Position numbers and translations under genes: made by a program. The notes below the pieces were generated by a model. The model was given only the letters and a program-made list of their open reading frames with translations. It was not told the origin of the DNA and searched no databases. This document shows, one piece after another, positions 3,005 to 15,441 of a stretch of DNA of 64,000 nucleotides (the stretch's first letter is position 1; the number at the start of each line of letters is the position of its first letter). Source of the DNA: Candidatus Marinacidobacterales bacterium. Its GTDB lineage: Bacteria > Acidobacteriota > Vicinamibacteria > Marinacidobacterales > SMYC01. Location: NCBI GenBank assembly GCA_965237955.1, contig OZ250169.1, positions 2,272,001-2,336,000 on the forward strand. The letters run 5' to 3'.

Positions 3005-6000
3005 TTAGACCGACAGACGATTACGGGTGAACGCCTCACTAAGAGAGGTGTCCACGACGCATTCATAGTCCTCGAGACGGGCCACGAGACCGCCGTCGCT
3101 GTCGAGGAACTCCATGTCAGCCCGAGCCCAGGAGTTTCCGCTCTCGCTGATCTTTACGACGACAGAGACTCCGTCGCCAGGAAATGAGTCTCTGAACTGA
3201 CGATAGCGCCCGGCAAAGGTCGGCAACGAGGCGGCTCCGTGAATCTCCCGGCTCCAGACAATCATCAGTTGGAAGGCGACGTCTAGCGCCAGAGGATCGG
3301 CGAGCCACGCGCTTCTGAGTGGCTCGGCGAGCCAACGGGAGGGAGGAACCGTCGGGCCGGTGCGGGCGGTGATGGCGTCGTCGGAGATACCTTCCACCTC
3401 TTGGATACCCTGCAGAGCGGGCCCCTGGAAGAGCAAGTCACGATAGATCTCGTCGCTCGGCCGGTGGTAGGGATGAGTGTTGGTGTTTAGCCGGGCGCCG
3501 GAAGCCGCGGGCAGCTTGGACGCCAGGTGAATCGTCGCTCGGGCATGGTGGTGCTCCTTGCCCTCGGCGCCGGTGCTGCGAATCTCCACGGGAACACTGA
3601 GGAAGCCGAAGCCGAGGCCGTTCGTCTTTATGGCCTTGCCGGTGAGGACCTGGGTGGCGCGGGTTTCGCCGGCATCCAGGGTAAGTCCCTTGAGCACTCT
3701 GAGGTCGTCGAATCCATGGAAGCGGAGGCCGGGATTCTTGTGCACGGCGCCATGGGCCATCCACTCGACGATGAGAGCCAGGGGAACGACGGCCCGGCCA
3801 TTCAATACGTGATCCTTCAGTATCGGCACTTGCTTCACACCGATCTCTCTCTCGAAGGCCACACTCAAGCTCGCACCCTTTTCCGGCGGCGCGAGCATCA
3901 CGACCTCTACGGCGTCCCGGCTGCCATGGCGAATCTCGTCCACCAGCGCCCGGCTTCCTTCTTGAAGACCGATGAGCCCCACGCCCTCGTCATGGAACAC
4001 CTTGGCCAGGGCCGGAGTGACCATGCCACCGTCCCAGGGACCCCAACCCACGGAAACCACCCGGGCGGAAGGAATCCTCGCGGCCAGCCGCCACGCGGTC
4101 TTGTTGAGCACCTCGTTGGCCACGGCATAGTCCACCTGGCCTTTGCGACCGAAGCGTGCCGTGGACGACGAGAAGAAAACCACGACCTTGAGGGCTTCGA
4201 CGTCCAAAGCGGACAGGAGGGCGGTCATGCCGGCAACCTTCGTCCCGAAGACCCGGGAAAACTGCTCCTCAGTCTTGTTCTCGATGAGCTGATCCGCGAG
4301 CACGCCGGCCCCGTGTACGAGACCGGTGATGGGTCCGAGCTTCGTGCGAACGTCAGCAAGGATGTCCTCAACCGCCGCACCGTCGCGAACATCCACCGCG
4401 CGGTACTCCACATGCCCGGCCGTCCGTGCCACATCGTCAAGAGTCTGCCGAATCTCGCGATTCACCATGAGGCGTCGGTACTCTTCACCCACGTGGCGGG
4501 GCGAGGCACCGGCACCTGCCCGAGTTGCGATCTCTTTCTTGATGGCCGCTTCGGCGGTAAGGCCATGAAGCCATGCGGGCTCGGCCGTGGGCTCTGGACT
4601 TCTCCCAAGAAGCACGAGCTTCGATCCAAAAGCCCGGGCCAGCTCCCGGGCGGCCGCCGCTGTCACACCTCTGGCTCCGCCTGATATCACAATGACATCG
4701 TCCCTGCCGAGCTCGAACGACGATTCACCGGGAACGATGGCGCGGGGCGAGAGCTCCAGAGTGACCCGGCCCGTGTGGGTGAGACCCACTTCGAGCGGCC
4801 CGTCGAAGAAAATCTCATCCACGATGCCGGCGGCGAGCGAGGCCGCGTCATGGACCCCCGACGTAACATCCATGGCCTTGCAGTGCACCTCGGGCCACTC
4901 GTGGCTTGCCGTCTTGGCGAGACCGGCCAGTCCGCCGCTTTGACACCGCGTCTCGGGGCCCGTGCCCTTCAATCCGAAGGAGCCGTCTAGACGGGACACG
5001 GTGACGAAGACCGAGCCTCGCGAGCGGCCGCTCCGGCGCAGTGCAGAGCTCACCCGACTCAGGAGCGTCAGCGAGTCGGCCAGGAACTGGTCGCTGTCGG
5101 GACTCGCCGGGCCGACCACGACGAGGCCACCTAGCTCCGACGGTGGCTCCAGGGATGCTGCGTCTTCCAGCGCGACGAGACGGGGCTTTAGACCCAGTGC
5201 CTCCATGCGATCGGCGACCTCGGCCGAGAGGCCGGAGTCGTCACGGGAGATCAGAACGACGGCGTCAGAGGCCAGAGAGAACTTCTTGCGCTCCGCCGCC
5301 TCGTCCAGGACTGTGACAGCGAGGACACTTCTCTCTGGCGCCTTGGCTCGAGACACACTAGCCCGCCGCACGAGCTCGTCTACATCCACACCCTCGGCCG
5401 GAATCGATGAAGGCGTGATGCGGGCTTCTACGGCATCCGACAGCGTGTCCACCACGTTGCGCACCGTCCGCCAGGAGTTGATGATGCCTTGGGCGATCTC
5501 GGGCATGGAGGGTGTCTTGTCCCTAAGGAAGGAGAAGATCTCCGCGCGCTTGACCTGATCGATGCCCAGATCCGAACTGAGATCCATGTTCATGTGGAGG
5601 GAGTCCACCGGAAATCCCGTCTTGGCCGAAACCGCCGCCAAAACGCTCGAGCTGATTCTGAGGTCAACGGTGGAAACCGACGCCGGCGTGCCACCGTTCG
5701 TGTCACTCTCAGTGTCAGTGTCAGCAGCAGTCTCCGCTGCTTCAATGGGGGCCGGCGATGGAGCGGCCGCGCCGTCTTCTGTGAGGAAGGCCACGACCTG
5801 TCCAAGAGTACGCAGGGTGCCGAGGTGCTCGGGGCCCACGGACGGCGCCTCGGGAATGCGTTGCTGCAACGCCGAGAGAATTTCCACGCGCTTGATGGAG
5901 TCGATGCCCAAGTCCGAGTCCATCTCCATGTCCAGGTTCAAGATGTCGACTGGGTATCCGGTCTTCTCGGCGACCACCTCGAGGAGAACCGCCTCCACCT

Positions 6001-9000
6001 TGCCGGCATCGATTTTGGAAGGCTTGCTGGTTTCCCCGGGAGAAGTGGCTCTCGGCGTCTCGGCCGGCGGAGGCGTCTCGGCGAGAGTGGGTGCCATCGC
6101 CGGAGCCGCAACCTGTACCGGCGGCGGCACGGGCACGGGAACGGGTTGGGCTCGAGGCAGGGGTGACGGTGCCAGGCCCAGCCGTTGCTCGACGAGGCGT
6201 TGCTTGTGATCGACCAAGGATTGAAGCGTGCGCTGGGCCGACTCCTGGCCCTGAAGGAACTGCCGATGGAGGGCGGCGGTTTGCTCCTGCATCTTTTGAA
6301 GCGCGGCCATGTTCTCCTGTGTCATCCGTAGCGCGTCATCAATTACGGCGTGCCCAGCGCTGCCCGGAGCGGATGGCTGTCGCGGGACGGCGGCAGCGTT
6401 CTCTTTGGGGGGCTCGGGGGTTTTGGCGGGTTCGGGTGGTTGACGACTCATGGTGGTTCGCCTTGGGGCCGGCGCCTCCTGCCTCTTTTTTGGTTTGACA
6501 TAGTTGGCGCCGCTAAGGGTCACAGTGAGAGCCGGCTTGGAACGCTCGTCCGCAAACGCCAAGGATGACGCCTCGGGGTCCCACTGATTTAAATCGACGC
6601 GGAAGCCGTAGGCAGAAACGCGGGCCAGAGCCCGGGCGAGGTCGACGGCTCCGGAGCGCTTGCCCGACGATGCATCGAGGGCATGCGCCACATGTTCTTC
6701 GCCCTCGAGAATCGACCGCACCAAGCCGGTGAGCCGGCTCCCCGGGCCGACCTCGAGAAAGAAGCGGGCGCCGTCTCGGTGCAGGTTTTTGATCTCATTG
6801 ACGAACTCCACCGGCCGGACGAGCTGATCGGCGAGCAGCGCGGCAATGCCGGAAGCCTCATCGGGATACGTTTCGCCGGTGGCGTTGGCGTAAACCTTGC
6901 GCCGGGGCGCCGCGATGTCGGCCCGGCCGAGCTCGGTAGCAAAGGGCTCCGCGGCATCGACCACGAGAGTGCTGTGAAACGCCGCGGAGACTGGAAGACG
7001 CTTGCATCTAACACCGCGCCTCTTGAAGGCCTTCACCGCTTTTTGGATCTCGTCGGTAGGACCGGACAGAACGAACTGGGCCGGAGCATTCTTGTTGGCC
7101 ACCACCAGGGCGAGTGAATCCTCGACGACGATGGATTCGATGGTGCTCTCATCGGACTCCACCGCCAGCATGGCGCCGCGGTCGCCGTTGCCCTCGCTCA
7201 TGAGCCGCCCGCGGAGCATGGAAAGGACGCTCAGGGTCTGGGCGTCGAACACCTCCGCCGCTTGCAAAGCCACCAGCTCGCCGTAGCTGTGACCCGCCAC
7301 GGCGGCAGGCTCGAGACCGAACCTCTGGAGCACGCCCAGGGCGCCCACCGAGACGGCGCCGATGGCTGGCTGGGCCACCTCTGTGGCGCGCAGCGCTCGT
7401 TCTTGAGCCTCTTTCGTCTCATCGTCGAAAGCCGGGTGCGGATAGATGACATCGCTGAGCCGGTTGCCGGCCCTGTCCAGCCTGTTCATCCTGTCCAGGC
7501 TGTCCAGTAGCTCGGGGAACTGACAGGCCAGATCCCTGAGCATTCCCACGCACTGAGAGCCCTGGCCCGGGAACAGGAAGGCTAGAGATCCTACCGGCGC
7601 TCCGGTGCCGTAAAAGGCCCCGTCCGGTGTAGTCCACGAAGTCTTGTCGGTATGGGTCTTCAAGAGTGTGAGGCCACCCTCGAGACACTTTCTGAGTTGG
7701 GTTGGCTCCGTGGCCAGGATCAGCCGGTGCGCGGCCTCATGACGGAACGAGCTTCGGGCCCGGGCGGCCAGGCCTCGCAGGGCTCGTATATCAATGCCCT
7801 TCCGATCGGACGGAAAGGCCTGAGCGACGCTTACGAGCTCCTCTCGAGTATCGGCCGAAAATGCCAGGAGCACGGTTTCGCCGTCGAAGTCCGGAGCGGC
7901 CTTGGCCGCTTCCGCTTCTTCGAGAACGCAGTGGAAGTTGCTCCCGCCAAAACCGAAGGCGCTCACCGCGGCCCGCCTCGGATGATCTGCGGAGGAAAGC
8001 CAGGGCTTCTTCGTGGTGTTGACGTAAAAGGGTGAGCCCCCATTCCTGAGCACATCCAGCGGCTCGGTGACTTTCAAAGTCGGGGGAAGAACCTTGTGTT
8101 TCAGCGCCAGGGCGGCCTTCATCACGCCGGCGATTCCGGCGGCAGCCTTGGTGTGTCCCAGCTGCGATTTGACGCTGCCCAGCGCACACCATCCTCCGTC
8201 GGCATCGGCTTCTCGGAACACCGCGGAAAGGGATTCGACCTCGGTGGCGTCTCCCACCTTCGTGCCCGTGGCATGGGCCTCGATGAGCTCGATGCTCCGG
8301 GCCGAGATCCCGGCGCCGGCGTAGGCGTCTCTGAGAGCCTTGGCCTGGCCGCTGGCTACCGGCGCGTACACCGCCGTGCCCTTGCCGTCGCTGGACGAGC
8401 CTATTGATCGGATCACAGCGTGGATGGTGTCTTGGTCTTTGCGAGCATCGGCCAGCCGCTTGAGCACCACGACGCCGAGGCCCTCACCGAGAATCGTGCC
8501 GTCCGCTGACTTGTCGAAAGGACGGCAATCGCCGGTAGGCGAGAGCGCCGGCGTCTTGCTGAAGCACATGTACATAAAAATGTCGTTGAAGGTGTCCATG
8601 CCTCCGGCAAGCACCATGTCAGAGCGTCCGGAGGCGAGCTCCAGGCCGGCAAGGTGAAGGGCGCCCAGTGAGCTGGCACAGGCCGCGTCCACCACGCAGT
8701 TGGTGCCACCGAGGTCGAGCCGGTTGGCGATGCGCCCGGCCACGACATTGCCCAAGAGTCCCGGAAAGGAGTTTTCCTGCCACTCCACATAGTTGTCGGA
8801 AATCTTCTGGACCACCGTGTCGGTAAGGTCGTCGGCGACACCGGATTCCTTCAGCGCCCGCCGCCACAGGGGGTGTCCCAAGCGGGCCCCCAGAGGAATC
8901 ACCAGCTCCAGCGTGCCCGTGACACCGAGAATCACGCTGGTCCGATCCCGATCGAAGCTTCCCTTCTCCCCATAGCCCGCATCTTCCAGAGCTTGGCTCG

Positions 9001-9319
9001 CCACCATGAGTCCGAGCAGCTGGGTCGTGTCCGTGGCCTCTATGTCGTTGGGCGCGATGCCGAAGGCAAGGGGGTCGAAGGCGACCGGTGACAGAAATCC
9101 ACCGCGACGGGCATAGGTGCGATCCGGTGCCTTGGGATCGTCGTCGAAGAAGTCCTCCACGTTCCAGTGGGTGGAAGGAATGTCGGTTATGGTGTCGACA
9201 CCGTTTTTGAGATTGGCCCAATAAGCCCCCACGTCATCGGCCTTGGGGAAGAGACAGGCCATGCCGACGATGGCCAGGGGCTCTTGTTGCATCCGAGTGT
9301 TACTGGACTTAGTGGACAC
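3005..9319 (-). CDS. pfaA: PUFA-synthase-like iterative type I PKS Pfa2/PfaA (KS-AT-ACP-ACP*-KR-DH)
   Basis: KS DAACASS/EAHATGT/GHTKAAAG; AT GHSYGE; ACP LGIDSIKRVE; second ACP-like LGIDQVKRAE; KR GGARGVT and YAVAN; DH HVLNGRAVVP. Likely GTG start at 9319 after GGAGG. Confidence 0.92.
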   Translation of the reverse strand: MSTKSSNTRMQQEPLAIVGMACLFPKADDVGAYWANLKNGVDTITDIPSTHWNVEDFFDDDPKAPDRTYARRGGFLSPVAFDPLAFGIAPNDIEATDTTQLLGLMVASQALEDAGYGEKGSFDRDRTSVILGVTGTLELVIPLGARLGHPLWRRALKESGVADDLTDTVVQKISDNYVEWQENSFPGLLGNVVAGRIANRLDLGGTNCVVDAACASSLGALHLAGLELASGRSDMVLAGGMDTFNDIFMYMCFSKTPALSPTGDCRPFDKSADGTILGEGLGVVVLKRLADARKDQDTIHAVIRSIGSSSDGKGTAVYAPVASGQAKALRDAYAGAGISARSIELIEAHATGTKVGDATEVESLSAVFREADADGGWCALGSVKSQLGHTKAAAGIAGVMKAALALKHKVLPPTLKVTEPLDVLRNGGSPFYVNTTKKPWLSSADHPRRAAVSAFGFGGSNFHCVLEEAEAAKAAPDFDGETVLLAFSADTREELVSVAQAFPSDRKGIDIRALRGLAARARSSFRHEAAHRLILATEPTQLRKCLEGGLTLLKTHTDKTSWTTPDGAFYGTGAPVGSLAFLFPGQGSQCVGMLRDLACQFPELLDSLDRMNRLDRAGNRLSDVIYPHPAFDDETKEAQERALRATEVAQPAIGAVSVGALGVLQRFGLEPAAVAGHSYGELVALQAAEVFDAQTLSVLSMLRGRLMSEGNGDRGAMLAVESDESTIESIVVEDSLALVVANKNAPAQFVLSGPTDEIQKAVKAFKRRGVRCKRLPVSAAFHSTLVVDAAEPFATELGRADIAAPRRKVYANATGETYPDEASGIAALLADQLVRPVEFVNEIKNLHRDGARFFLEVGPGSRLTGLVRSILEGEEHVAHALDASSGKRSGAVDLARALARVSAYGFRVDLNQWDPEASSLAFADERSKPALTVTLSGANYVKPKKRQEAPAPRRTTMSRQPPEPAKTPEPPKENAAAVPRQPSAPGSAGHAVIDDALRMTQENMAALQKMQEQTAALHRQFLQGQESAQRTLQSLVDHKQRLVEQRLGLAPSPLPRAQPVPVPVPPPVQVAAPAMAPTLAETPPPAETPRATSPGETSKPSKIDAGKVEAVLLEVVAEKTGYPVDILNLDMEMDSDLGIDSIKRVEILSALQQRIPEAPSVGPEHLGTLRTLGQVVAFLTEDGAAAPSPAPIEAAETAADTDTESDTNGGTPASVSTVDLRISSSVLAAVSAKTGFPVDSLHMNMDLSSDLGIDQVKRAEIFSFLRDKTPSMPEIAQGIINSWRTVRNVVDTLSDAVEARITPSSIPAEGVDVDELVRRASVSRAKAPERSVLAVTVLDEAAERKKFSLASDAVVLISRDDSGLSAEVADRMEALGLKPRLVALEDAASLEPPSELGGLVVVGPASPDSDQFLADSLTLLSRVSSALRRSGRSRGSVFVTVSRLDGSFGLKGTGPETRCQSGGLAGLAKTASHEWPEVHCKAMDVTSGVHDAASLAAGIVDEIFFDGPLEVGLTHTGRVTLELSPRAIVPGESSFELGRDDVIVISGGARGVTAAAARELARAFGSKLVLLGRSPEPTAEPAWLHGLTAEAAIKKEIATRAGAGASPRHVGEEYRRLMVNREIRQTLDDVARTAGHVEYRAVDVRDGAAVEDILADVRTKLGPITGLVHGAGVLADQLIENKTEEQFSRVFGTKVAGMTALLSALDVEALKVVVFFSSSTARFGRKGQVDYAVANEVLNKTAWRLAARIPSARVVSVGWGPWDGGMVTPALAKVFHDEGVGLIGLQEGSRALVDEIRHGSRDAVEVVMLAPPEKGASLSVAFEREIGVKQVPILKDHVLNGRAVVPLALIVEWMAHGAVHKNPGLRFHGFDDLRVLKGLTLDAGETRATQVLTGKAIKTNGLGFGFLSVPVEIRSTGAEGKEHHHARATIHLASKLPAASGARLNTNTHPYHRPSDEIYRDLLFQGPALQGIQEVEGISDDAITARTGPTVPPSRWLAEPLRSAWLADPLALDVAFQLMIVWSREIHGAASLPTFAGRYRQFRDSFPGDGVSVVVKISESGNSWARADMEFLDSDGGLVARLEDYECVVDTSLSEAFTRNRLSV

Positions 9320-11057
9320 GTAGTTCCTCCACGGGCCGCAGCCGGTACTCGCTCCACGAGCGCAGTGGTTGGACGCCCTGGCTGCGAAGGGCATTGATAC
9401 GGGTCAGCAAGGAGGCGCCGTGCAAGATGTTCAACGCAACGGTGACGACACGGCGGTGTTCCGGCTCCTCCAGGAACGATCCCTTTACCCATCCATTGAA
9501 TGCCCCCATCGAGGGCCCGCACCAGATCTGGTAGTCGATGGTCCGGGAGGGATCGCCGGCATTGGCCCAGTTCGACGACTGGCCGAGATACCAGCGGAAG
9601 ACCAAGGCCATCTTGTGTTTGGGATCCTTCGCGGCTCGCTCGAGCTGGGCCGGATCCCTCTCAGCGAAGAAGTCGCGGCATTGGCTCCACACCGCGTTCA
9701 CCGGTGCTCGGAAGTAATTTTTTTCCAGCGCCGCCATATCGGTCTCGGGAATGGACTCCAGACTTTCACACGCCCGGTAAAGTTCGTAGAGCTTCTGGGC
9801 TCGCATGGCGAAGAAGGTGCCGCGCTTGAGCACCTGTACCTTCACACCCATCTCGAACATGTCGGCCGCTGGCGCCATGGCGACGTCGGCCTGCTCGGCG
9901 GCGGCGAGCATCGTGCGCACGGTCTGAGACGTACCCGCCTCGACGCAGGACTGGTTGACCGAGCCAGTGAGTATGTAGGCGGCCCCCATGGAAAGGGCCG
10001 CAGCGGCTGAAATCGGAGTGGAGATGCCTCCGGCGGCTCCCACCCGCAGGGTCTCACTGTAACCATGACGTTCCTGCATCTGATCCCGGAGCGCCATCAG
10101 CGCAGGTATGAGGGCCAGGGCCGGCTGGTTGTCGGTGTGACCGCCGGAGTCGGCCTCGGCGGTGATGTCCTGGGCCATGGGAATGCGGGCGGCCAGACGG
10201 GCCTGCTCCTCGGTGATGTTTCCTGTGTCGACGAGAGGCTTCAACAGACGCTCCGGTGGTGGGGAAAAAAACTTCGTGGCGACTTCTATGCGAGACACCT
10301 TGGCGATGAGCCGGTTCGGCGTCACGATGCGTCCCTGGGAATCTTCGTGAATCCCGTGGACGCGGTAGCGGACCACAGGAAGAGTGAGATCCAGATAGGC
10401 CGAGGCCGAGGCCAGGTGCACGCCGCGCTGAATGTAGAGCTCGACCACGGCGGACTCCAGACCGGGCTCGTTGGGGCTGTGGATGAGGTTGAAGCCGTAC
10501 GGCCGTCCCTCCAGAGAATGAGACAGGCGGTCGATGGCGGCTTCCACCGCCTCGAGAGGCAGGCCGGCAGCGCCGAAGAAGCCAAGCATGCCGGCGCGGC
10601 CCATGGCCTCCACGATTTCGGCCGAGCCGATCCCATTGGCCATGGCACCGGCGATGTAGGGATAGCGCAAGCCATGGTCTAAGAGGAATCCCGGGTCACC
10701 AAGGTGCTCGGGAGGGCTGGCCGGGGAGTAGCCGATTATGGGAAACGCTTCACCCTCGGTGACACCAGCTCCTAGAATCGCAGTGCCGCCGGTCACTCGG
10801 GCGCACGCGCCCCGATCCGAGATCAGGATCACGGGTCGTCCGGTATCCTGCACGGCCTCCCTGATGGCGTCTGGCCGGCGGTCCACACGGGAGGCGGGGC
10901 CCGTCCACCAGCCCAAAGGAGCCATGGACTTTGCCGAGGTATCGCTATCGCTCGAGCGATCCGGCTCCGAAACGAGCGCGTGAGCGCGATGCTCGTGGAT
11001 CGGCGCGTATCGCTGGTTCTTTGAGGCCACTCCGGTTCTCGCGCGTTCGCTGGTCAC
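9309..11057 (-). CDS. pfaD: PfaD/Pfa1 family FMN-dependent enoyl reductase
   Basis: Motifs YIAGAMANGI, AEADSGGHTDN, VGAAGGI, MAPAADMFEMGVKVQVLKRG, DYQIWCGPSMGAFN. Start codon uncertain. Confidence 0.93.
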   Translation of the reverse strand: MTSERARTGVASKNQRYAPIHEHRAHALVSEPDRSSDSDTSAKSMAPLGWWTGPASRVDRRPDAIREAVQDTGRPVILISDRGACARVTGGTAILGAGVTEGEAFPIIGYSPASPPEHLGDPGFLLDHGLRYPYIAGAMANGIGSAEIVEAMGRAGMLGFFGAAGLPLEAVEAAIDRLSHSLEGRPYGFNLIHSPNEPGLESAVVELYIQRGVHLASASAYLDLTLPVVRYRVHGIHEDSQGRIVTPNRLIAKVSRIEVATKFFSPPPERLLKPLVDTGNITEEQARLAARIPMAQDITAEADSGGHTDNQPALALIPALMALRDQMQERHGYSETLRVGAAGGISTPISAAAALSMGAAYILTGSVNQSCVEAGTSQTVRTMLAAAEQADVAMAPAADMFEMGVKVQVLKRGTFFAMRAQKLYELYRACESLESIPETDMAALEKNYFRAPVNAVWSQCRDFFAERDPAQLERAAKDPKHKMALVFRWYLGQSSNWANAGDPSRTIDYQIWCGPSMGAFNGWVKGSFLEEPEHRRVVTVALNILHGASLLTRINALRSQGVQPLRSWSEYRLRPVEELRVH

Positions 11058-12675: not shown

Positions 12676-13482
12676 TCAGATATCGACTTCGGGCTTCGTC
12701 ATCCCTTCCGCGAGATAAGCGTGCGCCATGCACGGGGTGTTGAACGCGAAACCGAGCTCGCCCTTCGAATCGACGACGATGATGCCGCCGCGACCGTGGG
12801 TGCGTGATTTGAGCACCCGAATAGCTTGTTGAGCCGCCTCACTCGGCCCGATGCCGGAGGTTAAGGACTCGACGGCGCGATGTGCCATCACGACGCGTAT
12901 GATGCCTTCGCCCCAACCCGTCGACGACGCAGCGCCTCGCCGATCGTCGGCGTAGAGCCCGGAGCCAACAAGCGGCGAATCGCCGACACGGCCCGGAAGC
13001 TTGAGGAGTGCTCCGCCCGTCGACGTCGCGGCGGCGACATGCCCGTCGCCATCACAAGCGAGCGCTCCGACGGTGTCGGCGGGAGAGGCGAGCCCACCCA
13101 GCCCATCCATTTCGTCGAGAGCTCCCGGCTTCTTGAAGCGTTTCGCTTTCTCGAAGCGCTTACGCTCACGGTCTTCGATGAGAGACTCCGGTGCACACGT
13201 CGCGATACCGGACTCGCGCGCCAGCTCGAGAGCACCGTCCCCCACCACCATGAGATGACGCGAGCTCTCCATGACCGCGCGCGCGAGCGCTACCGCATGG
13301 AGCACACCCGAAACACACGCGACCGAGCCCGCTTCCAAGTCTTCGCCGTTCATAATCGCGGCATCGAACTGCACTTCGCCGCGTGCGTTCAAAACCGCCC
13401 CTCGGCCCGCGTTGAACGTCGGATCCGCCTCCATGTGCTCGACCGCTCTTTGCACGGCGTCGACCGCCGAGCCGCAACTAAG
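12676..13482 (-). pseudogene. iaaA: Isoaspartyl peptidase/L-asparaginase (Ntn hydrolase), C-terminal part, interrupted by IS110
   Basis: SAVDAV..FNAGRGAVLN..DAAIM, autoproteolytic D|TVGA, ATSTGG, GRVGDSP, STGWGE. Confidence 0.88.
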
Positions 13483-13560
13483 CATCGTACGCGCAGGGCT
13501 CGCGATCTGTCTGGGTAGAAACTCCAGTGCTGCACGGAGCGTCCGTTTCATACAATAGCG

Positions 13561-13718
13561 GGAGCATCCGGGAACCGAGGCCGACTCAACACTGGTGCGA
13601 TCCAGCCCGTAACTAAGCATGGCCCGGGGATGTTTCGGCACTGTCAGTGGTGACACGCGTGAGCGTGATCCCGTTTAGGAGAATGTAACGAATGCCCATC
13701 CCTGTTCCCGGATGCTTC
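13561..13718 (+). ncRNA. IS110-associated guide (bridge-like) RNA
   Basis: TACAAT -10 box at 13551-13556. Closing stem GGAGCATCCGGGAAC / GTTCCCGGATGCTTC; GNRA hairpin CACGC-GTGA-GCGTG. Loops contain AACTAAGCAT (= left junction) and TTAGGAGAATG (= right junction). Confidence 0.8.
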
Positions 13719-13740
13719 ACGAAGTATGAAGGAGCATCTG

Positions 13741-15129
13741 ATGAAGCACAATCGTCGTCAACCCAAGAAGCGGACTTCTCCATCCCTGCTGAAGCAAATC
13801 AACGTGAATGTCGCTGGGATCGATTGCGGCTCGGCCGAGCATTTCGTCGCAGTTCCACCGGAGCGCGATCCTAAACCGATCCGTTCCTTCAGGAGTTTCA
13901 CGGCCGATCTTCATCGGCTCGCCGACTGGCTCGCGACTTGCGGCGTGACGAGCGTCGCGATGGAGTCGACCGGCGTCTACTGGATCGCCCTGTATGAAAT
14001 CCTCGAAGCCCGTGGCTTCCAGGTCCTCTTGGTCAACGCGCGCCACGTCAAAAACGTCCCGGGGCGCAAGAGCGATGTCAGCGATTGCGAATGGCTCCGG
14101 GAGTTGCACAGCGTGGGGTTGCTCCGCGGAAGCTTTCGACCCGAAGCAGCCATCACCGCCCTTCGTGGCTACCTCCGCCACCGAGAGACTCTCGTTCAGA
14201 GTGCGGTAACCCATATCCAGCGCATGCAGAAGGCTCTCGTGCAAATGAATCTTCAACTCCACCTTGTGGTCACTGATATCACGGGTGTCACTGGCATGCG
14301 GATTCTACGAGACATCGTTGCCGGACAAACCGACCCCCATCGGCTCGCTAAGCACCGTGACCACCGTTGTCAGTCCTCCGAGGCCGAGATCGCCGCTGCA
14401 CTCACCGGCAACTATCGCCCCGAGCACCTCTTCGCTCTCAAGCAGAACCTCGAACTCTTTGATGCTTTTCAGCTCCAGATCCAAACCTGTGACGTGGCCA
14501 TCGAATCGCACCTGCAGCTTCTAGCTCAACGCTCAACCCCGAACACCTCCTTGCCACCGCCTCGAAAATCGCGCAAGCCCCGAGTGAACGAACCTCGGTT
14601 CGAGCTCCGGCCTCTCCTCCACCAGATCGCCGGGGTCGACCTCTCCCAGATCGACGCCATCGGACCCTATTCCGCGCTTCGCTTGCTCGCCGAGATCGGT
14701 ACCGATATGAACCGATGGCCTACTGAAAAGCACTTCACTTCCTGGCTTACCCTCGCGCCCAATAACAAAATCTCCGGCGGGCGACTCCTCAGCTCGAAAA
14801 CACAACCCTCTGCAAACCGGGCCGCTGGCATTCTCCGCATGGCCGCACTCAGCCTCGGGCGTACACAGACCGCTCTCGGCGCCTACTATCGACGTCTCGC
14901 CTATCGCGTCGGTAAATCCAAAGCCATCACCGCCACCGCTCGAAAGCTCGCCATTCTCGTCTACCGCACTCTCAAGGATGGGCTCGTCTATCAAGACCCC
15001 GGGGCCGCCGCCTACAACGCTCAAGATCGCTCCCGTGCCGTGCGCCGCCTGACCCAACGCGCCGCTGACCTCGGTTTCGCTCTCATCGACACTCAAACGG
15101 GCGACGTCGTTCAGGCGGTAGTTTCTTAG
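13741..15129 (+). CDS. IS110-family transposase/recombinase (DEDD RuvC-like + Tnp20 domain)
   Basis: AGID, AMESTGVYW, GRKSDVSD (DEDD) and C-terminal KISGG serine motif; AAGGAG RBS before ATG 13741. Confidence 0.95.
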   Translation: MKHNRRQPKKRTSPSLLKQINVNVAGIDCGSAEHFVAVPPERDPKPIRSFRSFTADLHRLADWLATCGVTSVAMESTGVYWIALYEILEARGFQVLLVNARHVKNVPGRKSDVSDCEWLRELHSVGLLRGSFRPEAAITALRGYLRHRETLVQSAVTHIQRMQKALVQMNLQLHLVVTDITGVTGMRILRDIVAGQTDPHRLAKHRDHRCQSSEAEIAAALTGNYRPEHLFALKQNLELFDAFQLQIQTCDVAIESHLQLLAQRSTPNTSLPPPRKSRKPRVNEPRFELRPLLHQIAGVDLSQIDAIGPYSALRLLAEIGTDMNRWPTEKHFTSWLTLAPNNKISGGRLLSSKTQPSANRAAGILRMAALSLGRTQTALGAYYRRLAYRVGKSKAITATARKLAILVYRTLKDGLVYQDPGAAAYNAQDRSRAVRRLTQRAADLGFALIDTQTGDVVQAVVS

Positions 15130-15270
15130 GAGAATGGTCTCGAACCCGATCATCGACGCCCGGTGGACTCCTTTGAGGTGGTCTTCAAGCTCACCTTCGG
15201 GTGTCGCCCACGCCCCGCCGTGGACGAGGATTGCGGGGCGAGCCTGGCGTGTCGCGGGCTTGTCCATCAT
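15130..15270 (-). pseudogene. iaaA: Isoaspartyl peptidase/L-asparaginase, N-terminal 47 codons
   Basis: MMDKPATRQARPAILVHGGAW... (IHGGAG-type motif) with a GGAGG RBS; in frame with the 12676-13482 part once the IS is removed. Confidence 0.88.
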
Positions 15271-15297
15271 ATGGTTTCCTCCGCACCCGATCGCTAC

Positions 15298-15326
15298 AAA
15301 AAAGGCGCCTCGGAGAGGGAGGCGCC
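15298..15326 (-). terminator. Intrinsic terminator after tRNA-Glu
   Basis: GGCGCCTC-7 nt-GAGGCGCC followed by TTTTTT on the minus strand. Confidence 0.75.
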
Positions 15327-15336
15327 GATAATAGCT

Positions 15337-15412
15337 TGGTAGCGCTACGGGGATTCGAACCCCGGTTTGATGGCTGAGAACCACCCGTCCTAGTCCCCTA
15401 GACGATAGCGCC
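15337..15412 (-). tRNA. tRNA-Glu(CTC)
   Basis: GGCGCTATCGTCTAGGGGACTAGGACGGGTGGTT-CTC-AGCCATCAAACCGGGGTTCGAATCCCCGTAGCGCTACCA. Confidence 0.96.
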
Positions 15413-15441
15413 ATCCAGGTGACTGCCAAGCAGTCTCAAAA

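Follow-up and report, generated by a model that had tools for sequence, protein, structure and literature searches.

Our analysis predicts that positions 13561-13718 of the window (the whole 64,000-nucleotide stretch of DNA that was analysed) encode the guide RNA of a multi-copy IS110 element, and it brings out a well-supported anomaly in one of the four guides: the 5' guide of the donor loop appears to read a segment inside the left end of the element. Because the donor loop thereby matches two separate places on the bottom strand, the donor is likely to be a folded single strand of DNA and not a duplex. On balance we favour, with slightly better than even confidence, a two-loop IS110 bridge RNA with guides in the IS1111-type order and a folded single-strand donor. 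The IS110 class, the handshake and this guide order are already known. Bottom-strand chemistry is likely to be central to the element, as the first-pass annotation of this DNA proposed.

The source genome carries 11 left ends and 17 right ends of the element, and IS-free paralogous sites exist in it for nine of the 11 left-end copies. Eight of these nine align without a gap if the element is taken as 13483-15132 (1650 bp), which indicates conservative insertion at a dinucleotide core; two nearly identical paralogues, at 97% and 99.7% over some 300 nt, match exactly across the junction. Since the paralogues align gaplessly under this boundary, the right core lies at the second AG, 15131-32, and not at 15128-29 as originally proposed; loop 2 of the first-pass annotation, described there as 2 nt of the element, AG and 7 nt of target, therefore consists of 5 nt of the element, the core and 4 nt that resemble flank. 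An IS-free allele of the window locus, with a length that matches the corrected boundary, is present in contigs of three of the four DNA runs, and the asparaginase-2 reading frame is uninterrupted once the 1650 bp are removed. The AG core follows the left flank in all 11 left ends, and the right flanks vary. The junction of a circularised element was not found in the contigs of the four DNA runs, which are uninformative on its absence. At one copy (G000:C1:2895069) the right junction has three additional bases (GAG) past the core relative to its IS-free paralogues. A tRNA-Glu(CTC) gene at 15337-15412 (- strand) lies 200 nt from the window element, close to where the split asparaginase gene begins.

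Table 1. Features of the IS110 element, its predicted RNA and its insertion site, in window coordinates.
Feature	Positions	Strand	Basis
Host asparaginase-2 gene, interrupted by the element	12676-15429	-	PF01112
Left target flank CAACTA	13475-13480	+	Same in 11/11 left ends of the source genome; read by target-loop 3' guide
Left AG core (bottom strand CT)	13481-13482	+	IS-free paralogues
Initial 7 nt of element; nt 1-2 are target-loop handshake partners	13483-13489	+	Identity 0.97/0.75 vs null 0.88/0.33, n=102
Left-end DNA hairpin, 4-bp stem, 7-nt loop	13490-13504	.	Fold; upstream of predicted RNA start
Inner left-end segment copied by donor 5' guide (6/9 identical here)	13505-13513	+	Guide matching; bottom strand is predicted partner
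Left subterminal inverted repeat, 34 nt inside end	13517-13523	+	6 bp complementary to right repeat, 82-87 of 87 elements per position
-10-like hexamer TACAAT, putative internal promoter	13551-13556	+	Sequence; like hexamer at same place in many homologues, by eye
Predicted bridge RNA, 15-bp closing stem, two pseudo-repeated internal loops	13561-13718	+	MFE z=-3.07; conserved fold
Target-loop 5' guide, complement of core and right-flank top strand	13584-13592	+	Family z=13.6
Target-loop 3' guide: left flank, core, 2-nt handshake (loop 1 of first-pass annotation)	13610-13619	+	Guide matching, permutation
Donor-loop 5' guide, non-canonical	13639-13647	+	z=1.0 at crossover; z=13.5 at inner segment
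Donor-loop 3' guide: element right end, core, 2-nt handshake (loop 2 of first-pass annotation)	13674-13683	+	Guide matching, permutation
IS110 recombinase, 462 aa, intact; D28, E75, D112, D115, S345	13741-15129	+	PF01548 and PF02371; NF033542; alignment
Right subterminal inverted repeat, 4 nt from right core	15120-15126	+	Repeat complementarity, end inspection
Final 4 nt of element, stop codon included	15127-15130	+	Paralogue alignment
Right AG core (moved from 15128-29)	15131-15132	+	IS-free paralogues; IS-free allele of locus has matching length

The recombinase scores 253 bits against NF033542 (cut-off 140). Its four acidic residues are invariant in 14 aligned sequences and its serine aligns with that of IS621, so that it combines the RuvC-like DEDD and the Tnp domain with catalytic serine that define the IS110 family; the match to IS621 itself is distant (E 1.7e-14), and likewise that to ISCro4. 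This intact recombinase lies downstream of the predicted RNA, and the proposal of an IS110 guide RNA is borne out.

For comparison we assembled 187 loci (77 from GTDB, 79 from metagenomes, 5 viral and 26 from 13 genomes, among them five copies of the element from the source genome), and the later addition of 10 plasmid or phage loci brought the set to 197. Our initial parser read 167 of the 187 loci (137 distinct guide sets, 107 with a left junction) and supplied the data for the tests of junction folding energy, hairpin axis, clusters and nearest-neighbour pairs; it misread a few donor guides, which weakened the signal. A stricter parser read 161 of the 197 loci (129 distinct guide sets, 102 with a left and 105 with a right junction) and was used for the guide z-scores, the repeat and wobble counts and the guide permutation test. 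Loci with truncations or motif variants (20 of 187 and 36 of 197, respectively) were excluded from every count. Junctions were placed by the flank and core portion of the 3' guides only, so the tests of the handshake and of the 5' guides are not circular; this placement was in turn checked with the guide permutations given below. As the homologues are kin, the z-values are overstated; clustering at 55% identity returned a single, uninformative cluster, and clustering at 70% gave 35.

A consensus fold computed with RNAalifold from 43 sequences (the window and 42 of 44 close homologues) has the two internal loops of a bridge RNA, target loop first, with 5' strands of 9 nt and 3' strands of 10-11 nt. 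Pairing in this fold is kept at 92.6% (87.5% when shuffled) and 45 two-sided changes are seen against 13.5 in shuffled alignments, a value reached by none of 500 shuffles. The first-pass annotation had instead drawn apical loops, whose helices pair in 71.6% of cells (shuffled 72.3%) and show 3 two-sided changes (shuffled 7.1). Its closing stem (13561-75/13704-18) and both of its sequence identities (13611-20 with 13476-85, and 13675-85 with 15126-36) are exact, and both stretches are same-sense and predicted to pair with the bottom strand; they are, however, not contiguous apical guides but the 3' strands of the internal loops, each with a partner 5' guide. A search of Rfam with the predicted RNA returned no family and nothing meaningful. 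The TACAAT proposed as a -10 box is there in the sequence, but a consensus promoter scan found no -35/-10 pair and no -35. Contigs from two of the four RNA runs cover part of the left end; start, strand and level are not readable from contigs, and because these reach upstream of the predicted start they provide no evidence of a small RNA.

The target loop has split guides on opposite strands. Its 5' guide agrees with the complement of the core and right flank at 3.93 of 8 positions (null 2.38), and elements with an AA core carry TT in this guide in 21 of 28 cases. The 3' guide, with 63 distinct 5-mers among the homologues, covaries with the left flank, as had been anticipated for loop 1: of 112 distinct elements, 94 have its 7-mer, with one mismatch at most, at the left end, whereas permuted guides score 9.9 on average and 18 at most, so that the proposed matches to the left flank and core and to the right end and core lie far beyond chance. 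Past the core, the five following bases of the target guide agree with the start of the element at 0.97, 0.75, 0.25, 0.19 and 0.15 (nulls 0.88, 0.33, 0.25, 0.19 and 0.15); the match thus tracks the DNA for 2 nt only, nt 3-5 being at the null. In the donor loop the corresponding bases of the 3' guide agree with the right flank at 0.41 and 0.24 (nulls 0.29 and 0.19) and then fall to the null, so that the idea that they specify the right flank is left with a weak signal at positions 1-2. The TG that lengthened the loop-2 match of the window is a fixed scaffold motif. We thus find a handshake that is strong in the target loop and weak in the donor loop, and the 'cross-wired' portion of the first-pass annotation is this 2-nt handshake guide. 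Here and below, published systems are described from the portions of the cited papers that were covered. In IS621, handshake guides of 2 nt pair with non-cognate DNA after the first exchange (PMC11208158, Hiraizumi 2024). The handshake here appears mirror-imaged relative to that of IS621 since its core is AG when read along the coding strand and CT along the opposite one, and the guide order is the reverse of the IS621 polarity, in which 5' guides read the bottom strand and 3' guides the top strand. In the window element the target 5' guide forms 0-3 of 6 Watson-Crick pairs with the nine right-flank types of the source genome; since it fits the actual right flanks so poorly, targeting rests on 8 nt.

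The donor loop does not present split guides on opposite strands at the crossover. Its 5' guide agrees with the complement of the core and left end at 1.94 of 8 positions (null 1.85, z = 1.0), and no register from -4 to +4 is significant in the homologue set. What it copies, in the same sense, is the 9 nt lying 23-31 nt inside the left end and ending 3 nt before the left subterminal repeat (4.29 of 9 identical, null 2.65, z = 13.5, n = 102), with a second register, one base along, in 29 of the 102. Taking one element from each of the 35 clusters, agreement is 4.33 against 2.20 of 6, and among 53 independent nearest-neighbour pairs guide and segment change together with an odds ratio of 5.0. 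In the two registers that are in use, 15 of 57 and 23 of 63 changes are compensatory, compared with 3-7 of 40-54 in five others. The link recurs in all eight scorable loci of the 10 plasmid loci fetched later (4.12 vs 2.84), and two other IS110 types of the source genome match at 7/9 and 8/9. Moreover, transition mismatches favour pairing of the RNA with the bottom strand (30:8; when each distinct guide is counted once, 21:7 and p = 0.013). Positions 1, 6 and 8 of the guide match poorly, and the predicted RNA starts downstream of the segment. The first-pass annotation had named canonical split target and donor loops as an outcome that would tell against its design; the target loop is of this kind, and the donor-loop 5' guide is non-canonical. 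Two further candidates for the missing donor guide, ATGC (13692-95) and GATG (13629-32), lie within stems and do not track the left end. At position 13509 the window copy carries a G and the remaining 10 copies an A; the G matches the donor 5' guide and the A would wobble-pair.

How could one loop read two places on the same strand? The bottom strand of the window element's circle junction is predicted to fold into a repeat stem, a 12 x 13 bubble and a hairpin (-6.7 kcal/mol), and this fold places the core-equivalent positions of the guide opposite the true core. As such a fold is a duplex mimic that presents both donor guides, it makes a folded single-stranded donor likely. In 64 of 93 stems, as against 10.7 in shuffles, the axis of the hairpin lies -1 to +2 nt from where it would bring the two repeats into alignment; distances of 7 nt to the core and 12 nt to the repeat are typical, and the subterminal repeats contain compensatory variants.

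In the mechanism that we propose, the recombinase would copy the bottom strand out as a circle, at whose junction the subterminal repeats would pair and the hairpin would turn the strand back. Within the resulting bubble of 12 x 13 nt, the inner segment would face the true core, in place of the top strand of a duplex donor. The duplex mimic would be bound by the donor-loop dimer and a duplex target by the target-loop dimer. The handshake pairs would assist an exchange that is limited to the bottom strands. Since a further exchange, at the mimic strand, would sever the element, the insertion would be left for host replication to finish. A comparable arrangement is found in the integron attC site, where a folded bottom strand mimics a duplex recombination site and replication resolves the exchange of a single strand. 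The integron enzyme is a tyrosine recombinase that works without an RNA guide and is unrelated, so the likeness is an analogy only. We give about equal credence to the truth and the falsity of a more general reading, in which the donor loop of a widespread IS110 clade with recombinases of about 450 aa has been rewired to a folded single-stranded donor, as an RNA-guided counterpart of attC recombination; on this reading a 6-nt guide together with the core would define where a single-stranded circle or oligonucleotide enters through the exchange of one strand.

Some observations count against fold-back. Folding of whole junctions shows no strand asymmetry (of 90, the bottom strand folds better in 42 and the top strand in 43), and the inner hairpin is weak when taken by itself, with a median z of -1.1. 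The G.T bias of the hairpin is towards the bottom strand at 47:20, only modestly above the composition expectation of about 58:42, and at the outer positions of the repeats the bias is the opposite (39 top : 4 bottom). In favour of fold-back, single-stranded circles are reported for IS621 (Xie 2026, 10.64898/2026.08.31.748434), and CazIS110-1 shows single-strand copy-out and integrates a single-stranded donor (Sun 2025, 10.1101/2025.10.25.684509), but in the latter work a duplex donor was preferred about 20-fold at one junction, which speaks against fold-back. The same preference would fit a conventional duplex circle for whose recognition a half-match (3' guide plus handshake) suffices, with the 5' guide pairing with the inner segment in duplex DNA for another purpose, such as tethering of the left end during excision or damping of a nearby promoter. 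Half-match recombination has been reported for IS621 (Xie 2026), and covariation indicates pairing and not the state of the DNA. Likewise, an ISPpu9 mutant in the A-box inverted repeat still forms minicircles by end-point PCR, the authors suggesting a role in integration (PMC12288879), a result that is compatible with fold-back and also with half-match recognition. Half-match recognition nevertheless leaves unexplained why the hairpin axis, the repeat spacing and the guide register together produce an exact duplex mimic, and we consider it unlikely, if worth keeping in view.

The geometry as a whole would also be accounted for if a supercoiled double-stranded circle, duplex elsewhere, extruded a cruciform and the fold made up one of its arms, for which the equal folding of top and bottom strands speaks. 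Such short stems (about 7 plus 4-6 bp) around a large bubble would probably not outcompete the duplex, and one-strand copy-out is reported in the family, so that a cruciform seems to us distinctly improbable. Hairpins near IS ends are common, and the match of guide to segment is partial, at about 4.4 of 6. One might then take the inner segment for a relic duplication or chance likeness, the hairpin for a terminator or insulator and the fourth guide for a degenerate one. Co-change in independent pairs, the wobble asymmetry and 72 distinct guides over about 44-100% protein identity make this very hard to credit, and no + strand terminator was found at the hairpin. Least credible of all, and in our estimate almost surely wrong, are the two apical loops of the first-pass annotation, in which each loop would be one unbroken guide across half of the target and half of the donor; the covariation test that the annotation itself suggested has gone against them. 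The window copy does have the exact 10- and 11-nt matches, and AATG does continue the right end in 8 of the 17 right ends; but the fold is not conserved, the core was misplaced, covariation ends 2 nt past the core and a separate 5' target guide is present.

How does the element compare with known systems? With IS621 and ISCro4, which exemplify the canonical bridge RNA layout (PMC11208160, Durrant 2024; PMC11208158; PMC13626964), it shares a recombinase with DEDD and Tnp serine, an RNA in the left end, a target loop that precedes the donor loop, both internal and with two guides, a dinucleotide core and a 2-nt handshake after the 3' guides. It differs from them in its mirrored guide polarity, with an AG core on the coding strand and 3' guides that read the bottom strand, in the length of its recombinase (462 aa; IS621 has 328), in subterminal repeats of 6-7 bp that stand 40 nt apart in the junction, in a donor 5' guide that does not read the crossover and in a promoter that appears internal and not junction-made. 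IS1111 elements with seekRNAs such as ISEc11 have the same guide order, a complement of the top strand before a match to the bottom strand, as well as subterminal inverted repeats and a 7-nt left terminal extension (PMC11187229, Siddiquee 2024). In that group, however, the RNA is mostly downstream, the recombinase has 330-350 aa and repeats of 11-13 bp lie 7 and 3 nt from the ends; here the repeats are 6-8 bp at 34 and 4 nt, the RNA is upstream and the protein has 462 aa, which places the element outside the IS1111 group. CazIS110-1 and IS621 excise and rejoin one strand, as proposed here, and a single-stranded donor can integrate, but they use the top strand with four guides at the crossover, and a folded donor is not described in the portions covered (10.1101/2025.10.25.684509; 10.64898/2026.08.31.748434).

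ISPpu9 and MITEPpu9 of Pseudomonas putida (PMC12288879, PMC8450116) have the AG core and an A box made up of the core, 7 nt, a hairpin, about 13 nt and a short repeat that complements the B box, and our element has this layout when compared by eye with Table S2 of PMC12288879. Like the predicted leader here, that of ISPpu9 is long and structured; ISPpu9 also has an internal promoter, the counterpart of the putative one here, with its start about 84 nt from the end, and it transposes and forms circles. The ISPpu9 group is described as free of inverted repeats, with the role of the palindrome left open, and the text covered of these two papers contains no guide map or folded donor. No ISPpu9 locus or Pseudomonas record was found among the matches listed (60 of 201 plasmid rows).

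Preprints of 2025-26 debate the strandedness, single or double, of IS110 circles at insertion, and our result is a prediction from sequence for one clade, that its donor loop can read with both guides a folded bottom strand and not a duplex junction. If true, this would be a natural programmable recombinase for single-stranded cargo and would account for the unexplained A-box palindrome of ISPpu9; four-guide design rules and short duplex donor windows would misread the clade. A recent bridge-RNA survey used 25-nt donor windows, which would probably miss the inner segment. In the literature covered, the running text of openly readable papers and preprints, we found no donor guide that reads an inner segment and no folded donor; this scope includes a 2026 review, the 2026 bridge-RNA survey, Hu 2026 and Na 2026, and the covered text of PMC13626964 (Hiraizumi 2026) and Perry 2025 has nothing on a folded donor. 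Fig. S12 of the survey may include the clade studied here.

Eleven of the 49 CAACTAAG sites in the source genome are occupied. The main target is a repeat just 3' of Mutator-like transposase remnants (PF00872, E 0.0074, below cut-off), as at G000:C1:313561 and 3680239 and at five filled left ends; we take this repeat to be probably an IS256-type end. The copy at G000:C1:3182436 lies in a repeat with about 50 genomic paralogues, of which the listed IS-free ones lack an exact CAACTAAG, several being one base off. In the window itself, five of the eight flank positions at 13476-13480 and 15133-15135 are unlike the IS-free allele (CGCAA/AACTA, GAG/AAT), with adjacent DNA about 98-100% identical; a GGSA motif seen in 11 of 11 relatives is kept in the IS-free allele, and the window flanks would encode CGSA. 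Because these flanks are identical to the commonest target of the element, they look overwritten, perhaps by recombination with another copy, and the 11-nt match of the first-pass annotation is inflated as a result. The element at G000:C1:1171196 also occurs at the same site in run X16, on a contig in which TTC replaces GA directly after the core, and the post-core bases of the source-genome version are the start of another copy's flank, a second hint of flank exchange between copies. No IS-free allele of this copy (C1:1171196/1172843) was found in 41 genomes.

The source genome also contains a second IS110 type (G000:C1:4255521 and related copies, 50% identical), with near-identical 3' guides in its two loops; the flanks on its left side are similar to its own right end, and several of its copies lie in tandem. 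A subclade of five homologues (L190-L192, L194 and L196) has an AA core and an A-rich target guide and sits in A-runs inside reading frames, sites which presumably resemble IS3-family frameshift sites. Elsewhere in the window, 3005-11057 (- strand) holds large ORFs of 2129 aa and 582 aa that, judged by eye, are polyketide/PUFA-synthase-like.
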